IMG/VR virus record: IMGVR_UViG_3300034073_002120
DNA: 64,000 nt
Direction: 5' to 3' (one strand)
DNA from: a virus
Lineage: Duplodnaviria; Caudoviricetes
The notes under the pieces were generated by a model, which saw nothing but the letters and a program-made list of their open reading frames with translations, was not told where the DNA came from and did no database searches. Positions 35,524 through 61,283 of the stretch are shown here, piece by piece. The first letter of the stretch is position 1. Every line of letters starts with the position of its first letter. The position numbers and the translations under genes were made by a program.

Positions 35524-35526
35524 AAC

Positions 35527-36519: not shown

Positions 36520-36522
36520 AAC

Positions 36523-41205: not shown

Positions 41206-41209
41206 ATTG

Positions 41210-42422: not shown

Positions 42423-43371
42423 AACCTAATGGAAATCCATTCCTATATTTTGATGATAAATCTTGTATTAAAATTGTATAAGTTTTTATAAGTTCTTCAA
42501 TACCATCTTCCAAACTCCAATCTGGTTTCCAACCAGTATCTTCTATTTTTTTATTCGAAACTACATAATCTCTTTTATCGGGGTCTTCATAAAAATCTGA
42601 ATATGTAATTGCAAAGTTTGGTACAAATTCTTTAATTTTTTCTACCAATTGTTGTTTAGTTAAATTAGCGTTTGATAGACCTACATTAAATACTTCACCA
42701 CTAAAATTATCATAATTATTTATCATATATTCAAATGTTTTAGCAACATCTCTAATATGAATGTAATTACGAGTAAAATTTTTCTCAAAAATAGTAATGT
42801 ATTTATCAGTTAGTGCTTTGTAAACAAATTCGTTTACTAATAAATCCATTCTCATTCTAGGAGATGAACCAAAGACGGTAGCAAGTCTTATTGAAATACC
42901 ACCAATTGCAAGAACCTCTCTTTCTGCTTTAACTTTGGTCACTCCATAGTGGGAAATTGGGTTGAGTGGACTTTCTTCGGTACACTCACCATTCTCTCCT
43001 ATCCCATATCCACTATTTGTGTTTGGATATATAACTTTTGTTCTTGTATTTTTTGCTAACTCACAAACTTTTCTAACGTGTTCGTAATTTACTGCAGTTG
43101 CAAGGTCTTTATCTCTATCACATGCAGGAAATCCTACAATTGCTGCTAAGGGGATTACAACATCAAATGTAGTAACTAAATCTTCTAACAATTTATGATT
43201 TCTAACATCACCATAAATAAAATTAAATCGTTTGTTATGTGAGTAATGAATTAAAGATGTTTGATTATACATCAAATTATCTAATATAGTAACACTATAA
43301 CCATTATTCAACAATCGCTCAGTCAAAACCGAACCTAAGTATCCTGCACCTCCTGTAATTAAAACTCTCAT
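42406..43371 (-). CDS. NAD-dependent epimerase/dehydratase (extended SDR)
   Basis: ITGGAGYLGS, LAAIVG, YGVTK and RLATVFG.SPRMR.DLLVN. Confidence 0.9.
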   Translation of the reverse strand: MRVLITGGAGYLGSVLTERLLNNGYSVTILDNLMYNQTSLIHYSHNKRFNFIYGDVRNHKLLEDLVTTFDVVIPLAAIVGFPACDRDKDLATAVNYEHVRKVCELAKNTRTKVIYPNTNSGYGIGENGECTEESPLNPISHYGVTKVKAEREVLAIGGISIRLATVFGSSPRMRMDLLVNEFVYKALTDKYITIFEKNFTRNYIHIRDVAKTFEYMINNYDNFSGEVFNVGLSNANLTKQQLVEKIKEFVPNFAITYSDFYEDPDKRDYVVSNKKIEDTGWKPDWSLEDGIEELIKTYTILIQDLSSKYRNGFPLGYGTRT

Positions 43372-43372
43372 A

Positions 43373-44788: not shown

Positions 44789-45507
44789 CGTTTATCATAA
44801 TTTATTAAGTTATTACCATTTTTAGTAATATCTAAAACTTTATATGGAGTTAATTTTTCAAAATTGTAAACAGCAACTGGTCTGTCTGATTTTTCCCATT
44901 TTCCATCAAAAGCTCTTTTAATATCTTTAGAATCCATATATGTTTGAAACACTCCACAAAATGATATATCTCCTTTGAAATAATGTCTATGTTCTTCTGG
45001 ACAACTATCTAATGGATTTGCAACACCTACCCACAACCAAGATGATGAATAATCTGCTAAATCATATATGAATTCTTGACTTATTTCAAAATCATTTGCA
45101 CTAAGTTTAAATAATTTTTTAGTTAAATTAAATGAAATAGAAATATCCATATAATCGTTAGAAATATCAGTTTCTGCATTTAATGGTAATAAAATTTGTT
45201 CGTATGTGGCGTTTTCCGAAGGTTCACCGATGATTTCAGTATCGTTACGTTTTTCTGTCCAACACATTCCTTTCAATATTCGATAATTATTACCTGTTTT
45301 TGCTATTGATATTCCTAAATGTTTTCCATTTTTTATCATAATACCAACCTCTTGCGTTTTAGTATTAGGTATTAAAAAATCCCAATCAACTTTTACTCTC
45401 ACTAAAAAAGTAAAATCACCAAGATGTAAATCGTTTGAATTGACTCTACTTAGACCATATTTACTTGTAGGTGGTATAAACCACGCATCATTTCCGTTGA
45501 ATATCAT
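44770..45507 (-). CDS. Stand-alone LamG/concanavalin-A-like domain protein
   Basis: FTFLVRVK, WLWVGVAN...FKGDIS..GVF and YNFEK. It resembles the inserts of the two GT7-like genes. Confidence 0.55.
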   Translation of the reverse strand: MIFNGNDAWFIPPTSKYGLSRVNSNDLHLGDFTFLVRVKVDWDFLIPNTKTQEVGIMIKNGKHLGISIAKTGNNYRILKGMCWTEKRNDTEIIGEPSENATYEQILLPLNAETDISNDYMDISISFNLTKKLFKLSANDFEISQEFIYDLADYSSSWLWVGVANPLDSCPEEHRHYFKGDISFCGVFQTYMDSKDIKRAFDGKWEKSDRPVAVYNFEKLTPYKVLDITKNGNNLINYDKRWMTEN

Positions 45508-46937
45508 AATTTAATTGTTTTGGTAAATTCATAAAAATCTGCTAATTCTGGAAATGTTTTTTTAAAATCAGTTCCTCTACGTCTATCGTGTTCTTCAAAG
45601 TATTTACCAAAATTATATCTTTGCTCAAATAATTTTTTATCATCTACAGGTGACACCATCCAATCATAAGTTCTTTTTATTTTTTGAATTTCAATATCAG
45701 AATAACCAATATATTTATGGTCAAAAAGTGGAACTCCTAAAAAATCTGCTTGCTGTGCTTGTTGATAAATTAGGTGTGCGAAATCATATGGTAATACTTG
45801 AACTGTTTGATGTGTTGGATATCGCAAATACGATGTATCTAAAAATACTGCAGAATTCCAATACCTATCATTCGAACCATATTTATGTTTTAAATCATAA
45901 ACACCATCGATTAATTTATGATAATTTGGCACTGATAATGCATTATATGTAACCATAAAAGTAAGATTTACTCTTGGACACTTTTCTAATACTTTATTTA
46001 CATTATCCCAAAAACGATTAAATTCGAGTCCGTTACGAATATATTCTGCTTGTTCCCCCCAACTATCACATGATGTAAATATGATAAATTCTCTAACTTT
46101 ATTGTCATCACAAATTTTGTTTATTTTATCAATAAATTTATCAACCAATTTATCTGGTACACCTAAATTTGAATTTATGGCAAGATTAAGTTGTCTATTA
46201 GGGTCTTTATGTTCTATAATATAATCTAACACATCCCATGTATCTTTACTCATTAATGGTTCACCGCCGGTAATTCTAAACGTGTGTAAATCTTTATATA
46301 ATTCCGGCCACCATTTCCAAAATGCATCTACATATGGATTATAATCCGAATGTTTTATTGGCATTTTATTTTCTACTGCATTATGTTCTAATGAATTAAA
46401 TTTATCAGTTGTTGGATATGAACCAAATTGTTCTATTTCTTCCATCCAACGAGATGAAAACGCAGGTGCACAATAAGAACACTTAAAATTACAAGCATTT
46501 GAGAATGCTACTTCTACATATTTTGGATTATAGTCATCTCTCCAATTTGTTTGTTTAATCTCATCCATAAAAGGATATGACCAACTCTCTGCAGATTTAA
46601 ATGTTCTATCAGAAAAACGGTCTGAATTATCTTCTACTCCCCAACAATAATCACATTCAGATGGTCGTTCACCTTCTAACATTTCTTTTCTTCTTCTCTT
46701 TTTATATTGAGTATTATGAAGAGCAGATGGATTACGTTCAATTTCTTTAGTAGGTATTGGATGAGTACGAGGGTGGTGACATGAATGTGTATGACCCAAT
46801 TGTAAGTGTAATGTAGTCTGTGTCCATTTAGCTAAACACATACCATTCCCTTGTGCGTTTAATTCATTTCTAACACCAACGTAAAATGGATTTTCACCGG
46901 TGAGAGTTTTCTTAAGGTCTTCCTTTTCTTCTGCCAT
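45504..46937 (-). CDS. Radical SAM protein with N-terminal twitch/SPASM-like Cys region
   Basis: CLAKW...HSCHHP, C..CW, FSNACNFKCSYC and ITGGEPLM. Confidence 0.9.
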   Translation of the reverse strand: MAEEKEDLKKTLTGENPFYVGVRNELNAQGNGMCLAKWTQTTLHLQLGHTHSCHHPRTHPIPTKEIERNPSALHNTQYKKRRRKEMLEGERPSECDYCWGVEDNSDRFSDRTFKSAESWSYPFMDEIKQTNWRDDYNPKYVEVAFSNACNFKCSYCAPAFSSRWMEEIEQFGSYPTTDKFNSLEHNAVENKMPIKHSDYNPYVDAFWKWWPELYKDLHTFRITGGEPLMSKDTWDVLDYIIEHKDPNRQLNLAINSNLGVPDKLVDKFIDKINKICDDNKVREFIIFTSCDSWGEQAEYIRNGLEFNRFWDNVNKVLEKCPRVNLTFMVTYNALSVPNYHKLIDGVYDLKHKYGSNDRYWNSAVFLDTSYLRYPTHQTVQVLPYDFAHLIYQQAQQADFLGVPLFDHKYIGYSDIEIQKIKRTYDWMVSPVDDKKLFEQRYNFGKYFEEHDRRRGTDFKKTFPELADFYEFTKTIKL

Positions 46938-46962: not shown

Positions 46963-48429
46963 TTATAGTTTTACATTTATCATTTTTGCTTGAGGAGTTA
47001 ATTGATTAATAGAAATCAATTCATATTCTAATTGAGTAATTCCATCAGATTTATAATCCCAATTACCTTGTTGCATTTGTAAAACATATCGTCTTTCATT
47101 TCGAGCAGTTGTTTCTCCCTTTGCCCATTTATCAACTCCACCAACTTTTATCAATCCTTCATCTTTATGAGGTAAACAACGTAATCTACCTGGTCTTCTA
47201 TGTGGAATTATAGTGTATGGTATTTCTATTTTTTCCATAACCGATTGACAACGTTTAATATCACCATTAATTCCGTTTCCACTAAAATCAATTGCAACAT
47301 TTGGTGAATCTATTTGTGTTGGATGGTTAAAATCATAATGTAAAGTTAAACCATTTGATGGAAAACTTTTATGTAAATTTTTAATTTCTTCTGATGACAA
47401 AGCACGATTCCAAAATTTTATATTTGCTATATCACCTTTAAACCATTTATTTGGTTGTCCTTTTCCTACGGATGTTGTTGTTCCGATATAGTAATCATCC
47501 AATCCATAACTTTTTAAACGATTTTCATAATGTAGTGGTGATTCAGTACCAGTTCCATGTCTTGCATCACTTTCTTTACCATTTAAATAAAAGTGAATAT
47601 TTTGATTTGCAGAATCTACTGATAAGGTTACCCAACTCCACTGGTTTTCATAACGTTTTATCCACTGGTATAGATGTTTTTGCTCAGAATCCCAAAGTTG
47701 TGCGGTATATGCTCTACTATTGTTATATGATAATCCGTAATCGTATCCTGGTCTTCGTATAATAGGGTATTCACAAAATCGTCTTTCAGTATCACCCACT
47801 AACCAAATAGGAACTTTTTCTTCTTGTTGATTTGCACGAACTAAAACTGAAATTGTGTGTGAACGTGATGTTAGATTTCTAAGTGTATTATGTTTTTCAA
47901 TTTTAATATGTGATATTCTTCCATCAAAATGTAAAAATGATTGAGGTGTTTGTGTATATTCCATATAAGAATCGTTTGCATAACCTTCTAACACACATCT
48001 CCAAAATAAATCATCATCTTCCATACCCCAATCCCAATAATCATTAGAGTATCCATTTGTTCGTTCTACTTGTTCTTTGGAGAATATTACTGCACCACCA
48101 AAATACTCTTCGTATTTCAACTTATAATCCATTTGAGAGATATTCGTAGCGATGTGTATAGGATGTTCTTTTGGAAATGAATAATCACATCCTTCTTCTG
48201 GTATCATATCAATATCATGCCAAACTATATAATCACACCCATCTTCAAATGCGTGTTTAGCTGCAACGTTTTTCATTGCACCTCTATTAAATAATTTATC
48301 ATCAGTTTGATGACCAAAATATATACAAAAATCAATACCTTGTTCTGTTAAATATTTACTAACAGCCGGTATAAATTCTTTTAAATGTTCTTCTCTATTT
48401 CTATATGGTACGCAAACTCCTAATTTCAT
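46963..48429 (-). CDS. GT7-like (beta-1,4-galactosyltransferase-like) glycosyltransferase with inserted LamG-like domain
   Basis: VPYRNR, FNRG, HDIDM, YFGG and GYSNDYWDWGMEDDD; insert W.WVTL...FYLNG...IG...FKGDIANIKFWNRALS; tail RR.G...CL.H. Confidence 0.8.
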   Translation of the reverse strand: MKLGVCVPYRNREEHLKEFIPAVSKYLTEQGIDFCIYFGHQTDDKLFNRGAMKNVAAKHAFEDGCDYIVWHDIDMIPEEGCDYSFPKEHPIHIATNISQMDYKLKYEEYFGGAVIFSKEQVERTNGYSNDYWDWGMEDDDLFWRCVLEGYANDSYMEYTQTPQSFLHFDGRISHIKIEKHNTLRNLTSRSHTISVLVRANQQEEKVPIWLVGDTERRFCEYPIIRRPGYDYGLSYNNSRAYTAQLWDSEQKHLYQWIKRYENQWSWVTLSVDSANQNIHFYLNGKESDARHGTGTESPLHYENRLKSYGLDDYYIGTTTSVGKGQPNKWFKGDIANIKFWNRALSSEEIKNLHKSFPSNGLTLHYDFNHPTQIDSPNVAIDFSGNGINGDIKRCQSVMEKIEIPYTIIPHRRPGRLRCLPHKDEGLIKVGGVDKWAKGETTARNERRYVLQMQQGNWDYKSDGITQLEYELISINQLTPQAKMINVKL

Positions 48430-49859
48430 TATATACCAACATTTATTATTTGAATTTTATCACTCACTCTTTCTATACCATATTCAATAAATTCAAGAGT
48501 GTTTAACCCATCATTATATATTAATTCGTGATGTTCGTTTACTTCATTTGTAAATCTAAGTTGATTCCAACGCGTTGATTGGTCTTTCCATTTATTTCCA
48601 ATAAATCCATTTTCTTCATGTTTGAGTGATTTAAAAAGAGATTCTCTTCGTTTTGGTACATCAAATTCGATAGTATCTTCAACATCCATTTCAATTATTT
48701 CACAATTAACAATTTCACCCATATTATCATTATATGATAAATCAATTAATTTATAATCACGACAATATGATGATTCATAATATAATTTTAAATTATCTGC
48801 AGATTTATATTCAGCAAAATTTACATTTAAAAGATTATTTTTATTATTAACTATTTCTAATATCTCCGTTTCATTCAACGTTTTATTGAAACATGCAAAA
48901 TACTCAAAATACCCCTTAAACCAATTTGGAATTATTTCTCTATCTGGATTACCTACTCCTAAGTAAATAAATTCTTCTTTTGTATATTTTGTATAAAATT
49001 TTCTAATAATTTCGGTTTCACCTATAAGAACACCATCTTGATACATTTTTATTGTTTTCGATGTGTTGTTATATGTAAGTGTTATATTAGTTCTATATGT
49101 TGGTTTAATTTCGGAATTTAAATATATTGCTTTTTTAGTAGAATCAAATACACAAAAATTATAACGATTAAACGATGTGTATGAAATAGCAAAATCATAA
49201 CCAGGAACACTAAAAATGGAATATTCATCCGATGGTTTAGTGTGGTCAAATTTTAAATCGGTTGGTTCAAAACAAACAGTTATAGAAAAATCATCAGTAA
49301 AATCTATTGTATTTTTTGCTTTAACTAAAGCATTATTTCCATTAAATTTTAATACTTGTTTATTTTTTGTAATGTTTTTAATATATTTTTTTGCAAGTGG
49401 AATATTGTGAAGTTTACATCTTAAAAATAAATCATCATCTTCATATCCCCAACCCCAATATTTGTTAGAATATCCATTAATTCTTTCAAAATCATCGACT
49501 GGGAACATTGTCACTCCACCGAAATATTGGTCAAATATTACTCTATGGTCTGATTTATTTTCAAATTCAAAATTTGTAGCAAGATGTATTGGAGAATCAG
49601 TTGGAGTGTAATCTGCATAGATAGGAAGCATATCTACATCGTGGAAAATTACATAATTACATCGTTGTTTTTTAGCATAACTAAATCCGATATTAAGTAA
49701 CATTCCACGATTAAATAATTTTGCATCATCTTGCTGAACAATTATTATTCTATAATCAATATGTGAATTTCTTCTAAAATATCGAGTTATATTTTTTTTA
49801 AATTCTTTTAAGTGTTCAGGTCGATTACGATATGGAACTATTATTCCAAGTCTATCCAT
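48429..49859 (-). CDS. Second GT7-like glycosyltransferase with inserted LamG-like domain
   Basis: IVPYRNR, FNRGMLLNIGF, FHDVDM and GYSNKYWGWGYEDDD; insert F.GNN...MYQDGVLIG...YLGVG...FKGYF...FNKTLN. Confidence 0.8.
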   Translation of the reverse strand: MDRLGIIVPYRNRPEHLKEFKKNITRYFRRNSHIDYRIIIVQQDDAKLFNRGMLLNIGFSYAKKQRCNYVIFHDVDMLPIYADYTPTDSPIHLATNFEFENKSDHRVIFDQYFGGVTMFPVDDFERINGYSNKYWGWGYEDDDLFLRCKLHNIPLAKKYIKNITKNKQVLKFNGNNALVKAKNTIDFTDDFSITVCFEPTDLKFDHTKPSDEYSIFSVPGYDFAISYTSFNRYNFCVFDSTKKAIYLNSEIKPTYRTNITLTYNNTSKTIKMYQDGVLIGETEIIRKFYTKYTKEEFIYLGVGNPDREIIPNWFKGYFEYFACFNKTLNETEILEIVNNKNNLLNVNFAEYKSADNLKLYYESSYCRDYKLIDLSYNDNMGEIVNCEIIEMDVEDTIEFDVPKRRESLFKSLKHEENGFIGNKWKDQSTRWNQLRFTNEVNEHHELIYNDGLNTLEFIEYGIERVSDKIQIINVGI

Positions 49860-50096: not shown

Positions 50097-50945
50097 TTAT
50101 ATTTTGGTTATTATTTTACTCAATCGATTCCAATATGTATAATCGAAAAAATTACTTTTTGTATTCGTCATTTTTTCAATAAAAAACTTAGAATTTTCAA
50201 CATCTATTTTAAAATCGTTTGATTCTATTTCATTATACATTAGTTCATATTCGGATGAAAATGCATATTCTTTTTTAACATCTGCAACTTGTTTTATTCT
50301 ATCTACACAAGTAGAATCCCATTTAAAATGATGTACTTGTATTAATCCATCACCTCTACCAACTGGATAACGTTTTGGATGTGATGTACCCCAACTATTT
50401 TTCCCATCCTCTACAATTGCATAATGTTGACCAGGGGTTACATCAACATATCCTTTCATTATACAAACTTTATTAGGACAAGCCCCACTTAGTGGATGTC
50501 TAAAAAATCCAGCAAGTGGAAACTTTTCCCAAATATTAGAGTCTTTCTCAACGATTGGAAATTCTCCATTTTCTCCTATCCTATCTATGAATCCACCAGT
50601 TATAAAATCCCAACCATTTTCTTCGCATTCTGAAATAAGTTCTTTGATTGGTTTTGGATAAATGTGAAATTCATCATCGTCTGAAACTACCCACCATTCG
50701 TTTGGTTTGGTTCGTTTAATTTCGTTATATAATTCGGTTACTTTTTCCCAATTGAATTTTGGTTCAGTAACTACTTTAATTGGCGTAATTCCTAATTTTT
50801 TAACTTCATCTAATATACCATCGGTTTCTGTCTGTCTATAAACAACGACGTGTATTTCATCAACTAATGGTTTGTAATGATTAATCATATGACCCAACAT
50901 AGTTGTGTTATGACCTACTACTGTAACTAAATTTATTTTTGACAT
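50097..50945 (-). CDS. GT-A fold glycosyltransferase (GT2-like)
   Basis: WWVVSDDDEF (DxDE), GFIDR, NKV, GQH and HHFKW. Confidence 0.7.
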   Translation of the reverse strand: MSKINLVTVVGHNTTMLGHMINHYKPLVDEIHVVVYRQTETDGILDEVKKLGITPIKVVTEPKFNWEKVTELYNEIKRTKPNEWWVVSDDDEFHIYPKPIKELISECEENGWDFITGGFIDRIGENGEFPIVEKDSNIWEKFPLAGFFRHPLSGACPNKVCIMKGYVDVTPGQHYAIVEDGKNSWGTSHPKRYPVGRGDGLIQVHHFKWDSTCVDRIKQVADVKKEYAFSSEYELMYNEIESNDFKIDVENSKFFIEKMTNTKSNFFDYTYWNRLSKIITKI

Positions 50946-51703
50946 CTTCTAACTAAAGTTAATCCGGTTGATGCTGGTTTATTTTTTTGAATTCCAAAAT
51001 TGAAAAGGTCAAATACTTCCCAATCTGAATTATCTTTAAGTTCTTTTGTGAATTTAATTGGGCCGTACCAATCATCAAAATCACCTCTATCTTTTACTTC
51101 ATCCGTAACGATGTAACTATCTGCATAATTTGGGTCGGTATCGTGAATTGAAATAATGGCGTTTGGAGAAAGTATTTGTGAATATAACTCAAAATCTTCT
51201 TTTACATTTTCATATGAATGTCCTGCATCTATATGTAAATAATCAATCTTAATATCGTTCAATACAAAGAAATTATGAAAGGCAGCTGCAGTTGTACTAC
51301 CAATAATACGTGGACAGAAAAAACGTCTAAAAAAAGATTCTTCTCTGAACCAATCTACATTACCTCCGATTCCATTCATTGCATCAACAACATAAGTAAC
51401 ACCAATATCACCCCAACTATAATCAGGGTTTCCATCAAATATTCCTTGTTGATGTAAATCGTATCTAGCTTGTGTCATTAATCTCGGAATAAATCCACCA
51501 CCACTACCTAAACATACACAAGTTTTTGCTCTCATATATTGTATAAGAGAATATACAATTAAACCGTCTCCCAAATGTAAATCAGTAGCACCATGTGACC
51601 AACGATATGGAACTGGCCTAACTTCTACTTCATGTGATTCGTTAAACTCCTGATTATTTGTCAGATTGTTTTTTAAGTATTCTAAATCTTGTAATGAAAC
51701 CAT
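50933..51703 (-). CDS. Class I SAM-dependent methyltransferase (Methyltransf_24-like)
   Basis: VCLGSGGGF, IDYLHIDAGHSYENVKEDF and ISIHDT. Confidence 0.85.
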   Translation of the reverse strand: MVSLQDLEYLKNNLTNNQEFNESHEVEVRPVPYRWSHGATDLHLGDGLIVYSLIQYMRAKTCVCLGSGGGFIPRLMTQARYDLHQQGIFDGNPDYSWGDIGVTYVVDAMNGIGGNVDWFREESFFRRFFCPRIIGSTTAAAFHNFFVLNDIKIDYLHIDAGHSYENVKEDFELYSQILSPNAIISIHDTDPNYADSYIVTDEVKDRGDFDDWYGPIKFTKELKDNSDWEVFDLFNFGIQKNKPASTGLTLVRRCQK

Positions 51704-51895: not shown

Positions 51896-52933
51896 TTATG
51901 ATAAAATTGCTGTACGGACTTTATCAATCCACTCCTCTTTATTATCAAATTTTTGCATATATTTTTTAAGATTTGACCAATTTTGGAATCGTTCTTCTTG
52001 TGAATCTTTTAATATTTGTTTTACACATTCATCGAACTCATTTTTAGTTGAAACTCTATATTTGTATTCAATTTCCGGTGCCCAATCTTTATTAATTATA
52101 GGTAATTTACCATAATCTACTGCCTGAAATATTGAATAACCAAATGGTTCTTTGAAATAAGCACCATGAAATATACCCCAATTTTTTAACATAAAAAAAT
52201 GATGAATAGTAGGGTCCCACTGAAATAAATCGATTCCATTTAACGAATATGTTGTAGTATCTCTTAAATTTTTTACATCAAATTGGTTAGTTAATACATA
52301 ACCTTTATGGTCATTCATCCAATGCAAACATTTACGTGATTCAGCACGAGATGCAAATCCAATTTTACCATTATCTATGTGAGTTGTAAGTGGTATATTA
52401 TTTTTGAATTCGTAAAAATTTGGAACGTTGTATGTGTAATTTGGAAATTCATCGATTAATTGAGTTTTATTATTTCCAATCCATATTCTTCGTTTAAATG
52501 TAGCTAGATATTCATCATAAAATTCTACATCTACTTTTGTTCCAAATTGTAATCGATTTATTTCTGGATTATTATCAATAACTTCTACCATTTCTCTAGC
52601 ATAAGCATGAACAAAAACTGTTCCAAATTTATCTTCCCAATGCCAAAGATGTGGACGATTGTGGTAATGTGGATGTAGAACATGAATTACTTCACTCTCT
52701 TCTAACCAACGATTTGTTTTTTCAGTATCATCGTAATGAAAATGAAATTGTAATCCTTTTGGTAAAGATTTTTCTTCAAAATTAATAGGTCTTTTAGAAT
52801 CGATTAATAATCTCCATTCCTTTTTTACAGGTAGAGTAGGCCAAACTAATTCTAAAAAATAATTAGTCCATATATCAGACCCACCTTGTATAGTGTTTCC
52901 TGCACCAGTTGTAACTAATAGTTTATACCCCAT
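51896..52933 (-). CDS. GT-B fold glycosyltransferase (GT4-like)
   Basis: IGFASRAESRK and EPFGYSIFQAVDYGKLPII (variant of ExFGxxxxEAxxxGxPvI). Confidence 0.7.
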   Translation of the reverse strand: MGYKLLVTTGAGNTIQGGSDIWTNYFLELVWPTLPVKKEWRLLIDSKRPINFEEKSLPKGLQFHFHYDDTEKTNRWLEESEVIHVLHPHYHNRPHLWHWEDKFGTVFVHAYAREMVEVIDNNPEINRLQFGTKVDVEFYDEYLATFKRRIWIGNNKTQLIDEFPNYTYNVPNFYEFKNNIPLTTHIDNGKIGFASRAESRKCLHWMNDHKGYVLTNQFDVKNLRDTTTYSLNGIDLFQWDPTIHHFFMLKNWGIFHGAYFKEPFGYSIFQAVDYGKLPIINKDWAPEIEYKYRVSTKNEFDECVKQILKDSQEERFQNWSNLKKYMQKFDNKEEWIDKVRTAILS

Positions 52934-52957: not shown

Positions 52958-53983
52958 TTATTCAAAAATAGCAGAAGCACAATTTCTACATATTGTATTA
53001 TATGATTCTTCCACTTTTTTTATATGCTCATCAGTTCCCCAAAAATCTTTTAATGTTTGTGTTTTAAAATCACCAAATTGTACTTCCATATCATAATCAT
53101 TGCAGCATAGAAATGCTTTACCTGCTGCATTTACATGAATCCATCCAACCGGTCTTCCACCAACCTCCCTACCATTACCACAGCCAATTACTTTTTTAGT
53201 CTCATCTCCTCCTTGTAAATTTCGTTTTATTGCTTTTTTATTAGTCATTATATTATCTAATAAACCGGCTCTATCAATTAAGGATGGCACATCGAATATT
53301 TGCAAACCAGGAAATAATTCTCTTGCTTTATTTGTTTGGGTTCGTAATTCACCGGTATTTGGGTCTAAATCCATATCGATGGGAAATTCTGGTCCTTTAT
53401 CTAACCAACCACCTCTATCACTAAAAGAATATTCGTTAGAACCATTTACCTGAATTGAAAATGATTTATTCTGAACCATGTCAGATAATTTTTCCATTGC
53501 GTATTTTACATTTGAAATTAGTTTATCAAATTGTTTAATATTAATGCCACTTCTCAAACTCCAAATATCAGGTTCAAATGCTGGAATATTCAAACATATA
53601 CCATTTACTACGCCCTTATATTTTACAATTAAATCTATTTTTTCGGAAGTCAAAGGAACTCCATTAGATAATACCATAAAACACAATCTATATTTCTGAC
53701 ATATTTTTAATAATTCTTCAAAATGTGGATATAATAAAATTTCATTATAATGTGCCGTATAAAATCCTCCAAAATTTTTGTGAACTAAGCCATCTGGTTT
53801 TTCTCTTTCATCTATTAGATTTTTAATTATTTTTTCTAATAATTCAGGACTCATCACTTCTTTACCATTTGTTGGATTACCTTTGTATTTTACCGGACAA
53901 AACCAACATTTTGCATTACATACTCCATATGGGTCTAATTGCATTTGATGGATTTTATAAGTTTGAAATTGCTCTTTTACCAT
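52958..53983 (-). CDS. Radical SAM protein with C-terminal SPASM-like domain; likely start ATG 53983
   Basis: CNAKCWFC, HYNEILL, SNG and FLCCNDY...G...C..C. TAATG coupling to the upstream gene. Confidence 0.85.
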   Translation of the reverse strand: MVKEQFQTYKIHQMQLDPYGVCNAKCWFCPVKYKGNPTNGKEVMSPELLEKIIKNLIDEREKPDGLVHKNFGGFYTAHYNEILLYPHFEELLKICQKYRLCFMVLSNGVPLTSEKIDLIVKYKGVVNGICLNIPAFEPDIWSLRSGINIKQFDKLISNVKYAMEKLSDMVQNKSFSIQVNGSNEYSFSDRGGWLDKGPEFPIDMDLDPNTGELRTQTNKARELFPGLQIFDVPSLIDRAGLLDNIMTNKKAIKRNLQGGDETKKVIGCGNGREVGGRPVGWIHVNAAGKAFLCCNDYDMEVQFGDFKTQTLKDFWGTDEHIKKVEESYNTICRNCASAIFE

Positions 53984-54960
53984 TATACTAATATTGATTT
54001 TTTTCCTACTTTTTGAATAAGTTGCCAATATTCATATGATGTAGTTCCTTCATTTATATTAATAGTTGCACCATATGGTAATTTATCCGTAAAATCTGAT
54101 TTATAAAATAATCCAGATGTTGAATTGACAACTCCTGCATTATGAAATATATTACATTCATCCCAAAGTTTATCTGCAGATGTACCCCAACTAAATTCTA
54201 AGTTTTCATGACAGATAGTTTCATATCCAAGTTTCCAACCATTCCACAAAACTGCCCACATATCTGCACACCATATTTGCAATGGATGATATGGAATTCG
54301 CTTTGGTGAATCAAGTGAATGGGTATGTCTATCTAATTGAATTTTTTCGTTATTTAATTCCGTTATATTGAAAAATAAATTTTCAGAATCGTCTTCTACT
54401 TTTTGCCAATAGTTTTCATCAATTCCCTTCATTATATATTGTGCCCCGATTGCGTTTAATTCGTTAGATTTGACTATCTCTTTATCTATGTCTACAATTT
54501 CACACATCTTATCTAATACATCTTCACCTTTACTGATAATGTAATCGTGTCCAATATACCAACGTGTATCACTACCATACCATTTTTCATCATCAATCAT
54601 TTCATCTGTAATCCATTCAGAAATTGGGTTTGTAAAAACTATATCACAATCATGATAGAAGATAGTTTCTTCTTTTAATTCTGGTCTATTTTTCCAATGC
54701 TGTTTTAATGCATTTGGTCTACTAGATGAAATATAATTTTTAGTTGTTCTAATATCATTATAAAAAAAGAATCTAACGTAATTATACTTTCCAGCTAGTT
54801 TAATCCATTCATCTGATATTAAGTCATTTTGTTTTATCCCAATAATATCTATATTATTTGGGTTTACTCCCATTTCTATAAAATTATGTATCATAACTTC
54901 AACCTGCCATGCGTAATAAAAAATAGCAGGTTGTGCACAAACAAAACGTAAATTTTTCAT
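53983..54960 (-). CDS. Putative peptide O-glycosyltransferase resembling plant HPAT (GT95) / SERGT (GT96)
   Basis: YYAWQVEVMIH, NYISSSRPNAL, FYHDCDIVFTNP, WCADMWA and IFH match, in order, the HPAT motifs YxxWQxxxM, Y...NRP, ExDHxFxxP, WxxEMY and IHY as I recall them. Confidence 0.6.
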   Translation of the reverse strand: MKNLRFVCAQPAIFYYAWQVEVMIHNFIEMGVNPNNIDIIGIKQNDLISDEWIKLAGKYNYVRFFFYNDIRTTKNYISSSRPNALKQHWKNRPELKEETIFYHDCDIVFTNPISEWITDEMIDDEKWYGSDTRWYIGHDYIISKGEDVLDKMCEIVDIDKEIVKSNELNAIGAQYIMKGIDENYWQKVEDDSENLFFNITELNNEKIQLDRHTHSLDSPKRIPYHPLQIWCADMWAVLWNGWKLGYETICHENLEFSWGTSADKLWDECNIFHNAGVVNSTSGLFYKSDFTDKLPYGATININEGTTSYEYWQLIQKVGKKSILV

Positions 54961-54972
54961 ATTTAATTATTT

Positions 54973-56151
54973 TTAAAGAATATCACATGCACCTCCTGAT
55001 GTGAAACGTCCACTTGAATTAATTGTTCCATATACTGCTCCATCTGAATATGTTGCTCCACCACCATCGAATGGTGAACCATCATAATTGTAGTAGAATC
55101 TACCACTTATCAATTCAGAATATAAATTTGAATATACTGTTGTACTATATGAACCATATTGTGCATCTGAACAAGCACTTCCACCTGAACCTGTACTACC
55201 TTGTGCAATATTAATTGAGTAATTCCATCCACTAGGTGCTTCAGTTGTTGTAGTAGTTGTAGTTGTAGTTGTTGCAGGTGCAACATAACAACTTAATGTA
55301 GTTGATTTTTCGGTATAATTACCAACACTATCCGTCAATCTAACCCACCAAGTTCCATCACTTAATGATGACCAATATTTAGATGATGCACCTCCTAATA
55401 TTTCAGGTTCTGCGTATGATAATGCAGCCTGAGAATCTGCAATTCTAACTTGACTATAAGAACCATTACCACCAGAGAAATTATATATCGTTACAGTGCC
55501 ATTGTAACCAGATGCATCTGGACAACTACTAGCTATTCCAAAATTAACTGCTGATAGTGTTGTAGTTGTTGTTGTAGTTGTTGTTGTAGTTGTTGTAGTA
55601 CATCCTGTAACTAATACACTTCTCATAGAAGTTCTACCACCATCATCTGCTAAAATAATATAATAAGTTTGACCGTTTGTTAAACCAGTAAAATCATAAT
55701 TTGATGTATTAAATGGAATAGTAATAGGACTACTTATAGAAGTATTTGCTTCAGTAGTTCCAATTTTAACATACGACCAACTATTATTACCACCACCAAA
55801 ATTATTTATTCGTATTGTACCTGTATCTCCGGTACATTCTAATAAAAATGCATTGAATGTAATTGCACCAAATGTTGTAGTAGTAGTTGTAGTAGTAGTT
55901 GTAGTTGTCGTAGTGGTAGTAGTAGTTGTAGGTGCAGCAGTAGTCGTTGTTGTAGTTGTTGGTGCGGTAGTAGTCGTTGTTGTAGTTGCACCACCTACAC
56001 TTCTTCCTCTAAACTCATCCATACCATGTGGTTTTGATGAAATACCATATGCAATTGCAGCAGTATCCATATCAATCTGAGCAGTAGCTGTTATTCCTCT
56101 ATCTGTATTAAAATCTCTAAATGATATTTCGCCGGTTGATGGAAGTGCCAT
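54973..56151 (-). CDS. Mucin-like poly-Thr virion-associated protein with two SprB-like repeats
   Basis: N-terminal MALPSTGEISF.DFN.D.G motif typical of fibre-accessory proteins. It has three poly-Thr regions and is coupled by TAATG to the tail gene. Confidence 0.7.
   Translation of the reverse strand: MALPSTGEISFRDFNTDRGITATAQIDMDTAAIAYGISSKPHGMDEFRGRSVGGATTTTTTTAPTTTTTTTAAPTTTTTTTTTTTTTTTTTTTFGAITFNAFLLECTGDTGTIRINNFGGGNNSWSYVKIGTTEANTSISSPITIPFNTSNYDFTGLTNGQTYYIILADDGGRTSMRSVLVTGCTTTTTTTTTTTTTTLSAVNFGIASSCPDASGYNGTVTIYNFSGGNGSYSQVRIADSQAALSYAEPEILGGASSKYWSSLSDGTWWVRLTDSVGNYTEKSTTLSCYVAPATTTTTTTTTTEAPSGWNYSINIAQGSTGSGGSACSDAQYGSYSTTVYSNLYSELISGRFYYNYDGSPFDGGGATYSDGAVYGTINSSGRFTSGGACDIL
55243..55986. 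repeat. Three ACN-codon (poly-Thr) tracts: 55243-55272, 55558-55599 and 55873-55986
   Basis: The plus strand has tgt/agt/cgt/ggt triplet runs with mixed synonymous codons. Confidence 0.95.
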
Positions 56152-59100
56152 TACTTATCTTTTTTTAATTCGTCAATTTCGTTTTTAAGTTGTTTAACCG
56201 ATTCAATTAAAAGAGGAACTAATTTTTCATATCTAACTCCTAAATATCCACCATTCATCGTATTAACAATTTCAGGAAATACAGCTTGAACTTCTTGTGC
56301 AACCACACCTACATCATGTCCTGTAAATATTGTTTGATTATTATTCCAATCAAACTCATATCCATTTAATTGTGTTAGTTTATCAATAGGATTTTCTATA
56401 AGTGTTAAATTATCTTTTAATCGTTTATCCGAAGATACATATGCAGTAATATTACCATCACATCCAATAGCACCAGAAACAAACAATTGATATGTTGAAG
56501 TATTATCTCTTGGTATTAATACCTTTCTATTAGCTGCAGAAACTACCTGAATACCTCCGGCATTAATTTCCGTAAATTCTTCCGATATAGCTAAAGACAT
56601 ACCAGATACATTAGGAGTTCTAATAGAGAGATATTGAGTCATACTATATGGATAACCAGTGGTGCTTCCGGCAGCTGAAAATGTTGCTATAGAAATACCA
56701 ACCGATATATAATATGTACCAGATTCTACTACAAAGTTGAAGGTACCTGAATTATTTGAAGTTAAATTGACAGTGCTACCATTATTATTACCACCACTAT
56801 CATTAAACGTTTTTGTTACGTTACCGGATGGAGTGTGTAAAGTTATAGAAACAGTAACAGTTCCACTCATTCCATACAAACTTACATTAGTTGTAGAAGC
56901 ATATGCAGATGCATACCAATATCCACTTTGTGGTGTTAGTGTATATGCTAATGTAGCAGTTTGTCCTATAACCGAACTCCATGAACTATTACTTACTTGA
57001 GTATATCCATAACCAGTGTATCCACTTAAACTAGCAGCAATATAGTTAGTTTGTGTTGGACCATTTGATGTAGATGCTACGAATGAAGTTGCTATTGATG
57101 TTGTTGCAAGTGTAGGAGTTGATATAGATGGTTGTGTAAATGATGCATCGTTAGATATAGTTACACGAGTTTCATTTGTGGATGCATCATTTAATTTTAT
57201 GCTAGGTTCAAGTGAATTCAACACTAAATAATTTGCTGACATAGCTCCAGCACCAATTGTAAATCCACCAATATTACCACCGGTTGCATTAATAGTTCCA
57301 ACGAAATTACCGCCTGATGCGAATAAATTACCTGCAGTATCTACTGAAAAATTTTGTCCTATTTGAAAACTACCACCTGTTACTGTTACATTTGAAGCAA
57401 CCACTGCCCCTGCAGGACTTACTTTGAATGGTGCTGCTGCATAAGATGCATTTCCTAAGTAAATTCCATCTGGATCTGCTTTGAAAATATTATCACCACT
57501 ACCGATTGAAATTGTACCACCACTTAAAGCACCTGTAAATGTTCCACTTGCCCCACTTAATGCTCCGGTAAATGTACCACCACCATTTATACTCAATGCA
57601 GACCCATTCCAAGTTACGTTTCCATTTCCTAAACTAAACGTTCCATCTGAATACCAATAATCATTTGAATCGATGTAAATACCATCAGATGTTCCATTTA
57701 CATCATTTCCCAAACTCATTCCACCTGCAGTAATCTTACCAGCAAATGTTCCACCTGCAGCAGATAAGTTTCCACTAAATGTACCACCACCTGTAATTGA
57801 AAGATTTGTTCCATCCCACAATAATGAGTTTGATGCACTTTTTAGAGAAAGTTTTCCACTCGTTCCATCACTACCAATCCACGCACCAGTTTGGTCATAA
57901 CCTTTGGTTGCTTGACCAATGGAAATATATGGTGAGGTTGTACCACCGGCAATAGTAATATTAGCATTACCTGATGTGTTAGTTCCAACGTTTATAGTTT
58001 CCTTAACATAAGATTCTCTAAATATGGCAATTTCAGCTGCTACAAAATAAGAATCAGTTCCTAATGATTCCCAAAACGCAGTTTGAGTATCTGGTTGTTT
58101 ATTTAAGTTCGTAGTTGCGTTTGGTAATGTTGCATAATAAGTTCCACTATATAAAACAGCATCTCTACGAGTCGGATAATCATCAGTATCGTAATAAGTT
58201 GTAGTAGAACTCCACGGCCCCCTAAATACAACACCCGGTCCATCCGCACCATCTGTTCCATCAGTTCCGTCAGTTCCATCAGTTCCGTCAGTTCCATTCG
58301 TACCATCAATTGTTACACTAACTCTATGAACTTTTGTAATTGTACCAGATGTTCCTTCCGAATTTACATATGTTATTGTTAAAGAAACTGTTGTTCCGGC
58401 ATCAGTTGTTGGTGTTGTTGGAGTAATTGTTCCACTTGAATTAGAACCACCTGTAATTGCAGAAACATAATAAGTATTTATTGCACCACCAGTTGAATAT
58501 GAATAGTTAGAACCTCCCTCATTCACCGATGTTGTAAATGTAGATGGTGTTCCATATGTACCTGTATTTGATTTTGTAATCGATTGTGCATCATTTGATA
58601 AAAGAGCAATCACAATCGGAGCAGGTCTTTTTGCTTTTGTGTAAGTTACAATTTTTGTTACATCGGTTGTATCACCTGCACCATCTTTATATCTAACTAA
58701 TAAACTTAATGAACCACTATCTTTTGTTAAAGATGTAATACCATACGTTGCATCATCTGGAGTTGTATCATTTGCAACAACATTTGTTTCAGTTGCAGAA
58801 ATAATATCAAAACGATTATTTGTAGATAAACCTTCTTCTCTTGTTATATCTTCACCTCCAACTTTCACACTTACCGAACCACTTGTCAATACAAATGAAC
58901 CACTCTCAACAAATCCAGTCGATTTAGCAGGAAGAGTTGCGTTTTCATTTGTAAGAGTTACTGATAATCCATCTAATATTTTTACAGGTGTAATTTTAAT
59001 GAAATCAGAATAATTTATTCCATAATTATCCGATGCAGTAAATGAATATACTACCTCACCTGTTCCATATGAAAAAGTAGAACCACTTAAAAAATAAGTA

Positions 59101-61283
59101 GATACACCAGTTCCACCATCCGTACTTAATAATGTTAAAGGTGGTGCACCTGCCGTTGAATTCACTGTTATTGCAGTAATTGCAGATGCTAAATTTTTTC
59201 TTTTTGCATCAAATAATATTTTTTGTCCAGCTGGGTTTAGTGATAAATCCGTTGCTTTATAAATGAATTGATTTGCGTTAGATGTTACAAAAAGACCGGG
59301 TGCGTTATCACCATCTTCAAATCTATATATCGTTTCGTATTCTTCGATTGCTTCACATGATGCAGTGTATGTTATTGAACCTACTATTATTGAACTACTT
59401 AATTCTCCTTTAAAATTATCTATTACTAATGTTGCACCACCATCACCAAATGAAGAAAATCCACCAGGATATGTTCCACCATAAGAACCCGGTGAAATGT
59501 AATTACCACTTGTATCAAATGCAGATGAATAATAAGTTACACTACCTGTTAAATTTTGTTTTGTTACTTTGAATCCAATTTGTTGAGTTTGTGGATTAGC
59601 AAATGAGCCAGTAGAAAATCTAAAAGCAGTTCTATCAGATTCGAATGTTAGTAACTTTGTTGATGTTGGAAAATTATTACCGCCTGTAAATTGTTTTGAA
59701 GCAAATACATCTACTGGTATGTAGTTGTTATTTATATCATAAAATTCAAAACGGAAATCAAAAGTTTCTGATGCCACATTTTTAGAAACATCTTGTACTA
59801 TTGTAAATTCATCAGGTGAAAATGATGTTTCTTGTGCATTTTTCAAACTCACATTTGATATGTACCAACCACTACCATTAAACTCAAATACCAATTTGGC
59901 ATTTTCAGAACTACTGATAGGGGATGCAATTATATTTTGTGTAATATCTTGTTTTGTTTGATATATTGCAGAACCTGATAATGTTGTAAATTCTTGTGTA
60001 TAATTTGATGAACTTAAATACGCACGAAGTGTTTTTGAACTATCTACCGAACCACTATAAAGTGTTTTGAAACTAAGTGTATATTCCACATCTTTTGATA
60101 TGGAAATAGATTCGGTTGTATATAATGTTTGAACCCCAACTTGTCCATTTGTAGGTTTTACCGATGCGTATAATTTATCTAAGTTTATTGTTGGTTGTAA
60201 ATTAGCAGAACCAGTCCAATATGTATTTAAATTTGTTTGAGTAAAATTACCAAATGAAATATCGGTTTGACCTGTTGCTGTTAAATCTCTTAATAATTCA
60301 GTAGATTCTAATTTAGATTCTTGTACTAAAACATAATCACCAACATCGTTACGAGATTTACGGAATACTTTTACTCTTGCAACATCACCAACAAATGTTT
60401 TAAGATTTGAAATGTTTATTTTTGCAAACGAACCATTTAGAGCAGATTCTTCGAATGTTTGACCATCTAAATATTCAAATGATGATGTGTAACTAGTTTG
60501 TGCAAAATTTGTTACAACATTATTGATTGTATATGGAGTATCAACTAAAATCTCATCAGTATTTAAAACCTCTAAAACTTTAGCAGAATATCCGATTTCA
60601 GGTAATTCAATTGTATTTTCATCAATCGATGATGTCCATCCTGCACCACTAACTCTTTTTAATTTATACAAAGTTCCTGCAGTCCATCTACTTAAATTTG
60701 TTCCAGCAATAGGAATTTCTGAAATACCCTCTACTGAACCACTTTGTGTTATGAATGGAGTTGTTACGTTATAGATTGGTTTTACAATCTCATCTATTGT
60801 AATTGTTGGTCTTCTATAAAATCTTACACGAGTTTCGTTTGTTATATTTTTGTTGATTTGGAATGTCTTTTCCCACTTTACATTATATGTACCTTTCCAT
60901 TCTACTGGAATATCACGAATAACCCCGCTAGCATCCTCATAAGTCTTCAATTCTCCTAAAATGGTAATCTTACCTATCCCAATAGGTGTGTCCTCATAAA
61001 CGTGGACAGAAATCAATTTAGATATACCCTCATAATATTCAGGCACACCATTACCCGGTTCATAGTAAATAGGATTACCATCTACATCTAAAATCTCAAT
61101 TTTTATTTCAGTTGTTTCTTTTAAATGCTCAGAACCCTCAATTAAGAATCCGTTTTTACCACCTGTAAAAGTTTCATTAAATTCCGTAATACGAAAATAA
61201 TCAGAATTAGGATTTTGGTCTATGATAAACGTTCCGTAATTCGATAAATTTTGTAGTGGTGAATATGATTTGATTATTGCCAT
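56151..61283 (-). CDS. 1710-aa tail/baseplate-fibre protein with collagen-like linker and C-terminal peptidase S74 chaperone
   Basis: GTNGTDGTDGTDGTDGADGPG, FRGPWSSTTTYY...DAVLYSGTYY, Gly-rich beta repeats and SDKRLKDNL...GYEFDW...GVVAQEV..VFPEIV...VRYEKLVPLLIESVKQL. Confidence 0.85.
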   Translation of the reverse strand: MAIIKSYSPLQNLSNYGTFIIDQNPNSDYFRITEFNETFTGGKNGFLIEGSEHLKETTEIKIEILDVDGNPIYYEPGNGVPEYYEGISKLISVHVYEDTPIGIGKITILGELKTYEDASGVIRDIPVEWKGTYNVKWEKTFQINKNITNETRVRFYRRPTITIDEIVKPIYNVTTPFITQSGSVEGISEIPIAGTNLSRWTAGTLYKLKRVSGAGWTSSIDENTIELPEIGYSAKVLEVLNTDEILVDTPYTINNVVTNFAQTSYTSSFEYLDGQTFEESALNGSFAKINISNLKTFVGDVARVKVFRKSRNDVGDYVLVQESKLESTELLRDLTATGQTDISFGNFTQTNLNTYWTGSANLQPTINLDKLYASVKPTNGQVGVQTLYTTESISISKDVEYTLSFKTLYSGSVDSSKTLRAYLSSSNYTQEFTTLSGSAIYQTKQDITQNIIASPISSSENAKLVFEFNGSGWYISNVSLKNAQETSFSPDEFTIVQDVSKNVASETFDFRFEFYDINNNYIPVDVFASKQFTGGNNFPTSTKLLTFESDRTAFRFSTGSFANPQTQQIGFKVTKQNLTGSVTYYSSAFDTSGNYISPGSYGGTYPGGFSSFGDGGATLVIDNFKGELSSSIIVGSITYTASCEAIEEYETIYRFEDGDNAPGLFVTSNANQFIYKATDLSLNPAGQKILFDAKRKNLASAITAITVNSTAGAPPLTLLSTDGGTGVSTYFLSGSTFSYGTGEVVYSFTASDNYGINYSDFIKITPVKILDGLSVTLTNENATLPAKSTGFVESGSFVLTSGSVSVKVGGEDITREEGLSTNNRFDIISATETNVVANDTTPDDATYGITSLTKDSGSLSLLVRYKDGAGDTTDVTKIVTYTKAKRPAPIVIALLSNDAQSITKSNTGTYGTPSTFTTSVNEGGSNYSYSTGGAINTYYVSAITGGSNSSGTITPTTPTTDAGTTVSLTITYVNSEGTSGTITKVHRVSVTIDGTNGTDGTDGTDGTDGTDGADGPGVVFRGPWSSTTTYYDTDDYPTRRDAVLYSGTYYATLPNATTNLNKQPDTQTAFWESLGTDSYFVAAEIAIFRESYVKETINVGTNTSGNANITIAGGTTSPYISIGQATKGYDQTGAWIGSDGTSGKLSLKSASNSLLWDGTNLSITGGGTFSGNLSAAGGTFAGKITAGGMSLGNDVNGTSDGIYIDSNDYWYSDGTFSLGNGNVTWNGSALSINGGGTFTGALSGASGTFTGALSGGTISIGSGDNIFKADPDGIYLGNASYAAAPFKVSPAGAVVASNVTVTGGSFQIGQNFSVDTAGNLFASGGNFVGTINATGGNIGGFTIGAGAMSANYLVLNSLEPSIKLNDASTNETRVTISNDASFTQPSISTPTLATTSIATSFVASTSNGPTQTNYIAASLSGYTGYGYTQVSNSSWSSVIGQTATLAYTLTPQSGYWYASAYASTTNVSLYGMSGTVTVSITLHTPSGNVTKTFNDSGGNNNGSTVNLTSNNSGTFNFVVESGTYYISVGISIATFSAAGSTTGYPYSMTQYLSIRTPNVSGMSLAISEEFTEINAGGIQVVSAANRKVLIPRDNTSTYQLFVSGAIGCDGNITAYVSSDKRLKDNLTLIENPIDKLTQLNGYEFDWNNNQTIFTGHDVGVVAQEVQAVFPEIVNTMNGGYLGVRYEKLVPLLIESVKQLKNEIDELKKDK
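58232..58310. repeat. 9-bp-period repeat encoding a collagen-like (G-T-D)n segment
   Basis: ccatcagttccgtcagttccatcagttccgtcagttcc. Confidence 0.85.

Follow-up and report, generated by a model that had tools for sequence, protein, structure and literature searches.

A PHROG 4417 glycosyltransferase encoded next to a poly-threonine protein in an aquatic myovirus: a candidate initiating enzyme for virion protein O-glycosylation

Introduction

The DNA analyzed here is a 64,000-nucleotide stretch from a tailed virus (IMG/VR record IMGVR_UViG_3300034073_002120; Duplodnaviria, Caudoviricetes), the whole of which is called the window below. It contains a gene for a 325-amino acid (aa) protein (53983..54960, minus strand) that directly follows a gene for a 392-aa protein with long runs of threonine (54973..56151, minus strand). 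The plant enzymes HPAT (family GT95) and SERGT1 (GT96) attach the first sugar directly to side-chain hydroxyls of structural proteins that are repetitive and rich in Pro/Ser. An earlier interpretation of the window, referred to here as the sequence-only reading, had proposed that the 325-aa protein is an enzyme of this kind that acts on its Thr-rich neighbor, and had named a fold search against HPAT/SERGT1 and a survey of co-occurrence with Thr-rich genes as ways to check the proposal. The question raised by the locus is whether a phage-encoded enzyme starts glycans on Thr tracts of a virion protein.

We consider it probable that the 325-aa protein is a cytoplasmic enzyme that starts O-glycans on the poly-Thr tracts of virion proteins, and plausible that the products of downstream genes elaborate the glycan. 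In the proposed mechanism, the enzyme would act in the cytoplasm of the infected cell, before or during assembly, and would use a nucleotide sugar as the donor of the first sugar placed on the Thr hydroxyls of poly-Thr tracts. The acceptor in the window phage would be the 392-aa modular protein encoded just upstream and coupled to the tail-fiber gene, the 21 kb downstream (32845-53983) would provide unusual nucleotide sugars as well as enzymes that lengthen or tailor the glycan, and the linkers or tails formed on the particle would be mucin-like, stiff, and resistant to proteases.

The poly-Thr gene and its place in the window

All genes of the described part of the window are on the minus strand, and the GC content is ~30%. 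Upstream of the two genes is the gene for a 1710-aa tail-fiber protein (56151..61283, minus strand), identified from its open reading frame (ORF), its junction with the next gene, and matches to PHROG tail-fiber families (best E 3.7e-29); this protein contains collagen-like GTD repeats and a C-terminal fiber/chaperone-type region. The tail-fiber stop and the poly-Thr start overlap in the sequence TAATG, and a gap of 12 nucleotides separates the poly-Thr gene from the gene for the 325-aa protein, so that the gene order given by the sequence-only reading was borne out when the junctions were read. The large terminase was found to be closest to those of Microcystis phage Mel-JY01 and the Flavobacterium "immuto" phages (54-55% identity), and therefore the source of the window is an aquatic myovirus that is only distant kin of T4.

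The 392-aa protein, the proposed glycan acceptor, has Thr runs in three tracts, all encoded on the minus strand, and their lengths agree with the roughly 7 to 19 residues noted earlier. The first tract consists of 7, 7, and 19 Thr split by AP or AAP (residues 56-93; 55873..55986), the second of 14 Thr (residues 185-198; 55558..55599) that start right after the Cys closing the first β-sandwich module, and the third of 10 Thr (residues 294-303; 55243..55272). Thr makes up 22.7% of the protein, and the runs are encoded by a mixture of ACA, ACT, ACC, and ACG codons; therefore, the repeat is maintained at the protein level. When the window was searched for seven consecutive ACN codons, all of the matches (27/27) were inside this gene, compared to 0 in 100 shuffles.

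The layout of the 392-aa protein is an N-terminal module of ~50 aa, two β-sandwich (Ig/FN3/SprB-like) modules, and a C-terminal domain, with the Thr runs between them. It had no match in Pfam, PHROG, or NCBIfam, and its matches by shape were weak (TM score ≤ 0.35), to β-sandwich, fn3, and SprB-like modules. The N-terminal ~50 aa and the internal modules recur in upstream ORFs of related loci (L004, L011, L026, L033, and others). Because the gene is translationally coupled to the tail-fiber gene, its position suggests a fiber-associated or decoration protein.

Fold and conserved residues of the 325-aa protein

The 325-aa protein matched PHROG 4417, a family of unknown function, with an E value of 4.8e-61, residues 5-318 aligning with positions 2-291 of the 293 in the profile. 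Full-length homologues were found by tblastn in 77 of 50,697 phage records, and an exhaustive search gave 847 cluster representatives at E ≤ 1e-3. The matches listed from a profile search of 5.8 billion proteins were close relatives only, and every name displayed in the 120 best was "hypothetical protein". There was no Pfam or NCBIfam match (Pfam at E ≤ 1); the Pfam model Glyco_transf_8 (GT8) did not match the 325-aa protein at E ≤ 1 or any of 38 family members at E ≤ 10, and Pfam, NCBIfam, and PDB sequence searches with the protein and with a profile of the 38 members gave nothing genuine. A PDB sequence match of the transferase query to TALE repeats was rejected as spurious, and a scan of viral contigs with a distant family member (P0115) found nothing.

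The AlphaFold model of the 325-aa protein (pLDDT 96.8, pTM 0.93) has a GT-A fold. It opens with a β strand at residues 4-11, with no N-terminal helix or extension, and the protein is therefore without a membrane anchor. Compared with the models of reviewed UniProt proteins, the nine best matches were all GT96 or GT95 enzymes, namely SERGT1 of Arabidopsis and Chlamydomonas, HPAT1/2/3, PLENTY, RDN1/2, and NOD3 (E 5.8e-11 to 3.2e-8, TM by query 0.51-0.63, ~14% identity), which is the outcome expected from the sequence-only reading; GT8-like enzymes ranked next (E ≥ 2.8e-7, TM by query up to 0.53). Among AFDB clusters, three uncharacterized family members (TM 0.81-0.86) were followed by algal "HPAT-like domain" proteins. 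By shape in the ESM Atlas, the protein matched an HPAT cluster from Chlorophyta (TM 0.73), a viral cluster with Pfam HPAT matches in 10% of its members, and a bacterial cluster that joins an HPAT domain with PqqD (TM 0.71). PqqD is a peptide-recognition domain of the pathways for ribosomally synthesized and post-translationally modified peptides (RiPPs). The best solved structures were those of retaining GT-A enzymes, namely LgtC and glycogenin (Z 14.5), AgtA and UGGT (13.8), GlyE (12.3), and A64R (11.0), and no GT95/96 entry was among the solved-structure matches.

The sequence-only reading had quoted five motifs, and all of them occur in the 325-aa protein in the order given there: YYAWQVEVM starting at residue 15, YISSSRPNAL at 76, HDCDIVFTNP at 103, WCADMW at 230, and IFH at 271. 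In an alignment of the 38 members (32-60% identity), the invariant or near-invariant residues were W18, Q19, Y76, D104, D106, Y135, G172, Q174, M234, W239, H273, N274, and K287. These include the DxD motif D104-C-D106 (54643..54651, minus strand), in which D106 is invariant and D104 is at least 90% conserved, and which by analogy with GT-A and GT8 enzymes is the expected metal and nucleotide-sugar site. They also include His273 (54142..54144, minus strand), in an H-N-x-G ... F-x-K287 block where H273 and K287 are invariant and N274, G276, and F285 are at least 90% conserved. By analogy with GT8-type enzymes, His273 is the probable third metal ligand and Lys287 probably binds the diphosphate.

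The model and these residues point to a soluble, metal-dependent GT-A glycosyltransferase that probably retains the anomeric configuration. In its predicted structure the protein is nearest to GT95/96, of which it is not a demonstrable sequence member, and we regard PHROG 4417 as a new family in the GT8/GT95/GT96-like group of retaining GT-A enzymes, unannotated and largely phage-borne.

Association of PHROG 4417 genes with poly-Thr genes

The gene neighborhoods were compared in 80 related IMG/VR loci and 80 loci from genome contigs, which after removal of near-duplicates contained 66 single-domain copies. A Thr-rich ORF, defined as one with at least 8 Thr in 12 residues and ending just before the homologue, was directly upstream of 48/66 single-domain homologues, compared to 38/3167 (1.2%) of the other ORFs in the same loci, an odds ratio of about 220. 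The neighborhood survey thus agrees with the proposed co-occurrence. The association was also seen in the reverse direction: only 358 relatives turned up among 2.9 million viral contigs, and yet, of the 67 IMG/VR ORFs that contain a run of at least 10 Thr and have 1 kb or more of sequence after them, 7 had a family member immediately downstream.

Family members were found fused to GT2 plus GT32-like, GT7C, GT6, Methyltransf_24, and radical SAM/SPASM domains, and the final three of these domain types also occur in the window as separate genes near the transferase gene. Both the fusions and the reverse count bear on the explanation that the poly-Thr tracts are plain, unmodified flexible linkers, and that the transferase-like protein is inactive or has a role in assembly or as a chaperone. 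Low-complexity linkers are frequent in fibers, and most of the poly-Thr ORFs in viral contigs have no adjoining family member, but the DxD, His, and Lys residues expected for catalysis are invariant or nearly so, and the fusion partners are other active-type glycan enzymes. We regard this explanation as the least probable of those considered here.

Isolated phages and their tagged virion proteins

Thirteen isolated phages were examined, of which 10 have a Thr-rich gene directly upstream of the homologue, two (LP65 and 521B) have a weakly Thr-rich one, and one (bIL285) has none. The hosts of the isolated carriers are Lactobacillus, Enterococcus, Staphylococcus, Lactococcus, Clostridium, Arcanobacterium, and Chryseobacterium. 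It was found that the homologue follows the poly-Thr tract whichever virion protein bears the tract. The sequence directly upstream is the C-terminal tail of the tail tube protein in phiCTP1, phiFL1A, and 1706, an overlapping out-of-frame ORF after the tail tube gene in SA2 and TPWB06, an overlapping out-of-frame ORF after the major capsid gene in VPE25 and Planchet, a small FN3/Ig-like protein with a long poly-Thr tail in Semele and iLp84, a 429-aa protein in Chryseobacterium phage MA9V-3, and a weaker Thr-rich protein in LP65 and 521B. Several records label the small poly-Thr proteins beside the enzyme "major tail protein", which is probably wrong.

Runs of seven ACN codons were rare genome-wide in the carrier phages (0 in reversed-pattern controls), and most of them lay in these genes or in the C-terminal ends of major capsid and tail proteins. 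The capsid and/or tail-tube proteins carry C-terminal poly-Thr tags in iLp84, phiFL1A, 1706, VPE25, SA2, and TPWB06. The major capsid and tail-tube proteins of iLp84 both end in T7-S-K (L292:6345-6374 and 9793-9822), and the phiFL1A capsid protein ends in T5-KP-T5-KP-T7 (L091:806-955).

The 39-kb genome of Lactobacillus phage iLp84 has no other annotated glycosyltransferase, which argues for the PHROG 4417 enzyme as the initiator. An alternative is that this enzyme extends a glycan begun by another transferase of the same poly-Thr pathway. Three or more other GT-A-type proteins are encoded in the window, along with several ORFs that have no assignment, and the closest solved structures, LgtC, GlyE, and AgtA, add sugar to sugar. 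Against an extending role, the PHROG 4417 gene is what stays beside the poly-Thr ORF in distant phages, including small temperate ones such as iLp84, and the best named fold neighbors, GT95 and GT96, are peptide-priming enzymes. We therefore consider a role in extension unlikely, and the evidence from the small phages suggests an initiating one.

The carriers are also informative about the possibility that the acceptor is not a protein and is instead phage DNA, a wall polysaccharide, teichoic acid, or lipopolysaccharide, with the proximity to poly-Thr genes arising from shared late structural operons. Modification of DNA or of host surface glycans is a function of many phage transferases, and the two-domain cellular relatives described below lack a poly-Thr neighbor. 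The DNA of VPE25 is glucosylated, but this has been attributed to a separate enzyme that resembles the T4 β-glucosyltransferase (PMC4999554). DNA as the acceptor was rejected on the grounds that the VPE25 modification comes from another gene and that small temperate carriers, of 36-39 kb, retain the pair. More generally, the transferase gene tracks the poly-Thr gene, whether the latter encodes a capsid, tail tube, or small decoration protein; in the Herelleviridae the pairing holds away from the main structural block; and the enrichment was about 200-fold relative to other ORFs of the same loci. A non-protein acceptor is thus quite improbable.

The overlapping ORFs merit separate description. 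In VPE25 (L088:2725-2883) and Planchet (L085:2742-2888), the end of the major capsid gene is overlapped, in the -1 frame, by a poly-Thr ORF of 48-52 codons that is absent from the annotation. The VPE25 capsid gene ends in GCA-AAG-TAA, and a -1 slip on A-AAG would join the capsid protein to the poly-Thr tail; from its sequence, the overlap resembles a programmed frameshift by which part of the capsid subunits would be tagged. In Staphylococcus phage SA2 (L087:2649-2930) and Arcanobacterium phage TPWB06 (L090:2660-2926), the last residues of the major tail protein are eight or nine Thr and then a Pro before the stop codon, and an overlapping ORF annotated "hypothetical" carries on with long poly-Thr runs. 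In SA2, this ORF is in the +1 frame at CCC-TAA-G, which we take to be a classic +1 site, of the kind found in the SPP1 tail-tube extension.

Limits of the association and the two-domain relatives

Several observations weigh against the interpretation that the 325-aa protein primes the poly-Thr tracts. The likeness to the plant enzymes is one of fold: the 325-aa protein is ~14% identical to GT95/GT96 and does not match the Pfam HPAT model (PF23452) at E ≤ 1, and this model misses the family, detecting 1/38 members (E 0.23). In five carrier phage genomes it gave no match at the gene and a single weak one (E 0.012) elsewhere. Several other transferases are encoded in the window, and any of these could be the true initiator in this phage. 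With respect to the gene association, the loci share ancestry, so that the Fisher p-value overstates their independence and is indicative only; 18/66 single-domain copies have no Thr-rich ORF directly upstream, and ~90% of the long poly-Thr ORFs in IMG/VR have no adjoining family member. Among the isolated phages, bIL285 lacks an upstream tract and that of 521B is weak. Lastly, relatives of 480-650 aa with two domains had a Thr-rich neighbor in 2/57 cases.

These two-domain relatives (GT-A plus a GT7C-like domain) are common in the chromosomes of Chitinophaga, Pedobacter, Sphingobacterium, and Mucilaginibacter (Chitinophagaceae and Sphingobacteriaceae). The near-absence of a poly-Thr neighbor indicates that poly-Thr is not the acceptor for the whole family, and across the whole PHROG 4417-related family poly-Thr is neither necessary nor sufficient. 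Another peptide may be the acceptor for the two-domain relatives. In Chitinophaga niastensis (L104), the two-domain gene was seen, from translations inspected by eye, among genes for a radical SAM/SPASM protein, two unknown proteins, a LanC-like protein, and a second transferase; to judge from these translations, the locus looks like a cluster for a glycosylated peptide natural product.

Comparison with known glycosylation systems

The HPAT and SERGT1 enzymes are the best named fold neighbors of the 325-aa protein in three libraries; like it, they are GT-A enzymes with a DxD motif, and their repetitive acceptors parallel the proposed action on Thr tracts. They differ from it in being Golgi type II membrane proteins, whereas the phage enzyme is soluble, predicted to be cytoplasmic, and without an N-terminal anchor, and in that the plant acceptors are hydroxyproline (Hyp) or Ser, whereas the acceptor proposed for the phage enzyme is Thr.

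Among GT8 enzymes, LgtC, glycogenin, and GlyD/GlyE resemble the 325-aa protein in providing the best solved-structure matches (Z 12-14.5), and the conserved DxD motif and C-terminal His...Lys block of the phage family are interpreted by analogy with such enzymes; the phage enzyme has no Pfam Glyco_transf_8 match. The glycosylation of streptococcal serine-rich repeat proteins is cytoplasmic and takes place on a long repeat of hydroxy amino acids. There, GlyD/GlyE add to a GlcNAc that the GT-B pair GtfA/B has attached, whereas the phage enzyme is proposed to initiate. The A64R protein of chlorovirus PBCV-1 and the enzymes for capsid or fibril glycosylation in giant viruses are likewise GT-A enzymes encoded by viruses, with virion proteins as their cytoplasmic substrates (A64R Z 11.0), but they belong to eukaryotic viruses and make atypical N-linked capsid glycans, and the fold of A64R is more distant than those of GT95/96 and GT8. 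AgtA (GT77), a galactosyltransferase in the hydroxyproline glycosylation of Skp1 in Dictyostelium and Toxoplasma, is a soluble cytoplasmic GT-A enzyme that acts on a protein-linked glycan (Z 13.8); it differs in having a single acceptor site on one protein and in extending rather than initiating, and no sequence relationship to it was detected.

To our knowledge, virion glycosylation by phage-encoded enzymes is documented mainly for mycobacteriophages, in which it alters antibody recognition and was reportedly described by Freeman et al. in Cell Host Microbe in 2023. According to a summary of work on these phages, phage-encoded transferases decorate capsid as well as tail-tube subunits at their C-termini (PMC12619734). 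The PHROG 4417 carriers bear poly-Thr tags at the same two C-termini, as read from their gene sequences. In contrast, a poly-Thr tag and a fixed order of tag and then enzyme do not appear in that summary, the tract-bearing protein of the window phage is a separate modular protein, and the hosts are Bacillota, Actinomycetota (Arcanobacterium), Bacteroidota, and the hosts of aquatic myoviruses. No Mycobacterium phage was among the 77 tblastn matches from 50,697 phage records, and therefore mycobacteriophages use a different transferase family. We found no account of PHROG 4417 enzymes or of poly-Thr phage glycosylation tags in the literature, although this is weak evidence because few subscription journals were covered. 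Phage virion glycosylation is thus a known phenomenon, and what is new is the enzyme family, the simple acceptor tag, and the unexpected structural link to GT95/GT96.

A broader proposal, which seems to us quite possible but which we hold only tentatively, is that poly-Thr and PHROG 4417 form a portable glyco-tag across phages of Bacillota, Actinomycetota, and Bacteroidota and aquatic myoviruses. Any virion protein given such a tail, encoded directly or via a programmed frameshift at the stop codon, would be O-glycosylated by one dedicated cytoplasmic enzyme, and this enzyme would belong to an ancient peptide-directed GT-A lineage that also yielded PqqD-fused RiPP glycosyltransferases and GT95/GT96.

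If the interpretation of the 325-aa protein is correct, one unannotated gene and a simple tag would predict glycosylated capsids and tails in many phages, including well-studied ones of therapeutic or industrial relevance from Enterococcus (VPE25 and phiFL1A), Staphylococcus (6ec-like), Lactococcus (1706), and Lactobacillus, and also abundant aquatic phages. This would bear on immune recognition and clearance in phage therapy, on particle stability, and on adhesion, and would call for a rereading of cryo-electron microscopy and proteomic data, for example of unexplained masses and disordered tails. The enzyme and tag would also be a compact pair for cytoplasmic protein glycoengineering, and the family would provide the first plausible prokaryotic and viral relatives of GT95 and GT96.

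The downstream sugar block

The gene directly downstream of the transferase gene encodes a radical SAM/SPASM protein (52958..53983, minus strand; Pfam Radical_SAM and SPASM), the likely ATG of which overlaps the transferase stop codon (TAATG); a longer version of the ORF with a TTG start reaches 54028. Such a gene was directly downstream of the transferase in 16/80 IMG/VR loci, with full-length matches of 72-90% identity and one short partial match, and also in the genome contigs L098 and L099 (52-57%), and one database protein (P0013) is a fusion of the two. Conservation of the radical SAM/SPASM protein exceeds that of the transferase in the related IMG/VR loci (L004-L037; 72-90% compared to about 60-72% identity). 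In fold comparisons with its model (pLDDT 70), the sugar-acting enzymes DesII, BlsE, and BtrN tied with the peptide-acting enzymes CteB, SuiB, SkfB, and anSME.

Farther downstream, all on the minus strand, are genes for a 345-aa protein with no family (51896..52933), co-conserved with the module in L004, L011, L026, and L066; a Methyltransf_24-type methyltransferase (50933..51703), with the same domain that is fused to family member P0026; and a GT-A-like protein (Glyco_tranf_2_4; 50097..50945), which scored 26.7 bits, under the Pfam cut-off of 27.5, and is co-conserved in L004, L011, and L026. These are followed by genes for two paralogous GT7 (β-4-galactosyltransferase-like) plus Laminin_G_3 proteins (46963..49859), candidate glycan extenders. 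The combination of a eukaryote-type GT7 catalytic domain with a Laminin_G_3/concanavalin-like lectin domain, in tandem paralogues, is an unusual architecture for a phage.

The rest of the block (32845..46937, minus strand) consists of sugar-nucleotide and tailoring genes assigned to families and several ORFs without a family match. It encodes three radical SAM proteins (twitch-type and others), three epimerase/dehydratases of the short-chain dehydrogenase/reductase type, an RmlC-like 3,5-epimerase, split subunits like E1 of thiamine pyrophosphate (TPP) enzymes, a HAD phosphatase, and a 2-oxoglutarate (2OG)-Fe(II) oxygenase. The sequence-only reading had described the downstream genes as transferases, sugar enzymes, and tailoring enzymes; Pfam and NCBIfam upheld this in part, including the GT7, methyltransferase, and radical SAM assignments, and did not uphold the GT4 and GT10-like labels. 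The products of the block may plausibly make the donor sugars and build on the first sugar.

Two of these enzymes bear on the identity of the acceptor residue, which could be a neighbor of the Thr residues, either Hyp formed by the 2OG-Fe(II) oxygenase or a residue altered by the radical SAM/SPASM protein. Pro flanks the Thr runs in the 392-aa protein (AP-T7, AAP-T19, and VAPA-T10) and in Lactobacillus and Enterococcus phages (VKP-T5), the oxygenase is of the prolyl-4-hydroxylase type, and the radical SAM/SPASM gene is coupled or fused to the transferase gene. However, the oxygenase and radical SAM genes are absent from small phages that retain the transferase and poly-Thr pair, the iLp84 tail-tube tag (GE-T7-SK) has no Pro, and only Thr runs are common to all of the neighbors. 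An acceptor of this kind is very unlikely, and Thr is preferred, although the formation of Hyp from the flanking Pro residues by the oxygenase is conceivable. The oxygenase gene (32845-33537, minus strand) lies where the sugar block ends farthest from the transferase gene.

The two short genes that resemble the TPP-binding (E1 α-like) and pyrimidine-binding (E1 β/transketolase-like) halves of a thiamine enzyme (41210-41848 and 34972-35523, minus strand) are 6 kb apart, and it is a speculation that their products give a sugar a two-carbon branch. A very large ORF of 1619 aa (27825-32684, minus strand), with an N-terminal cytidylyltransferase-like domain and a DUF5661 domain, separates the terminase region from the sugar block.

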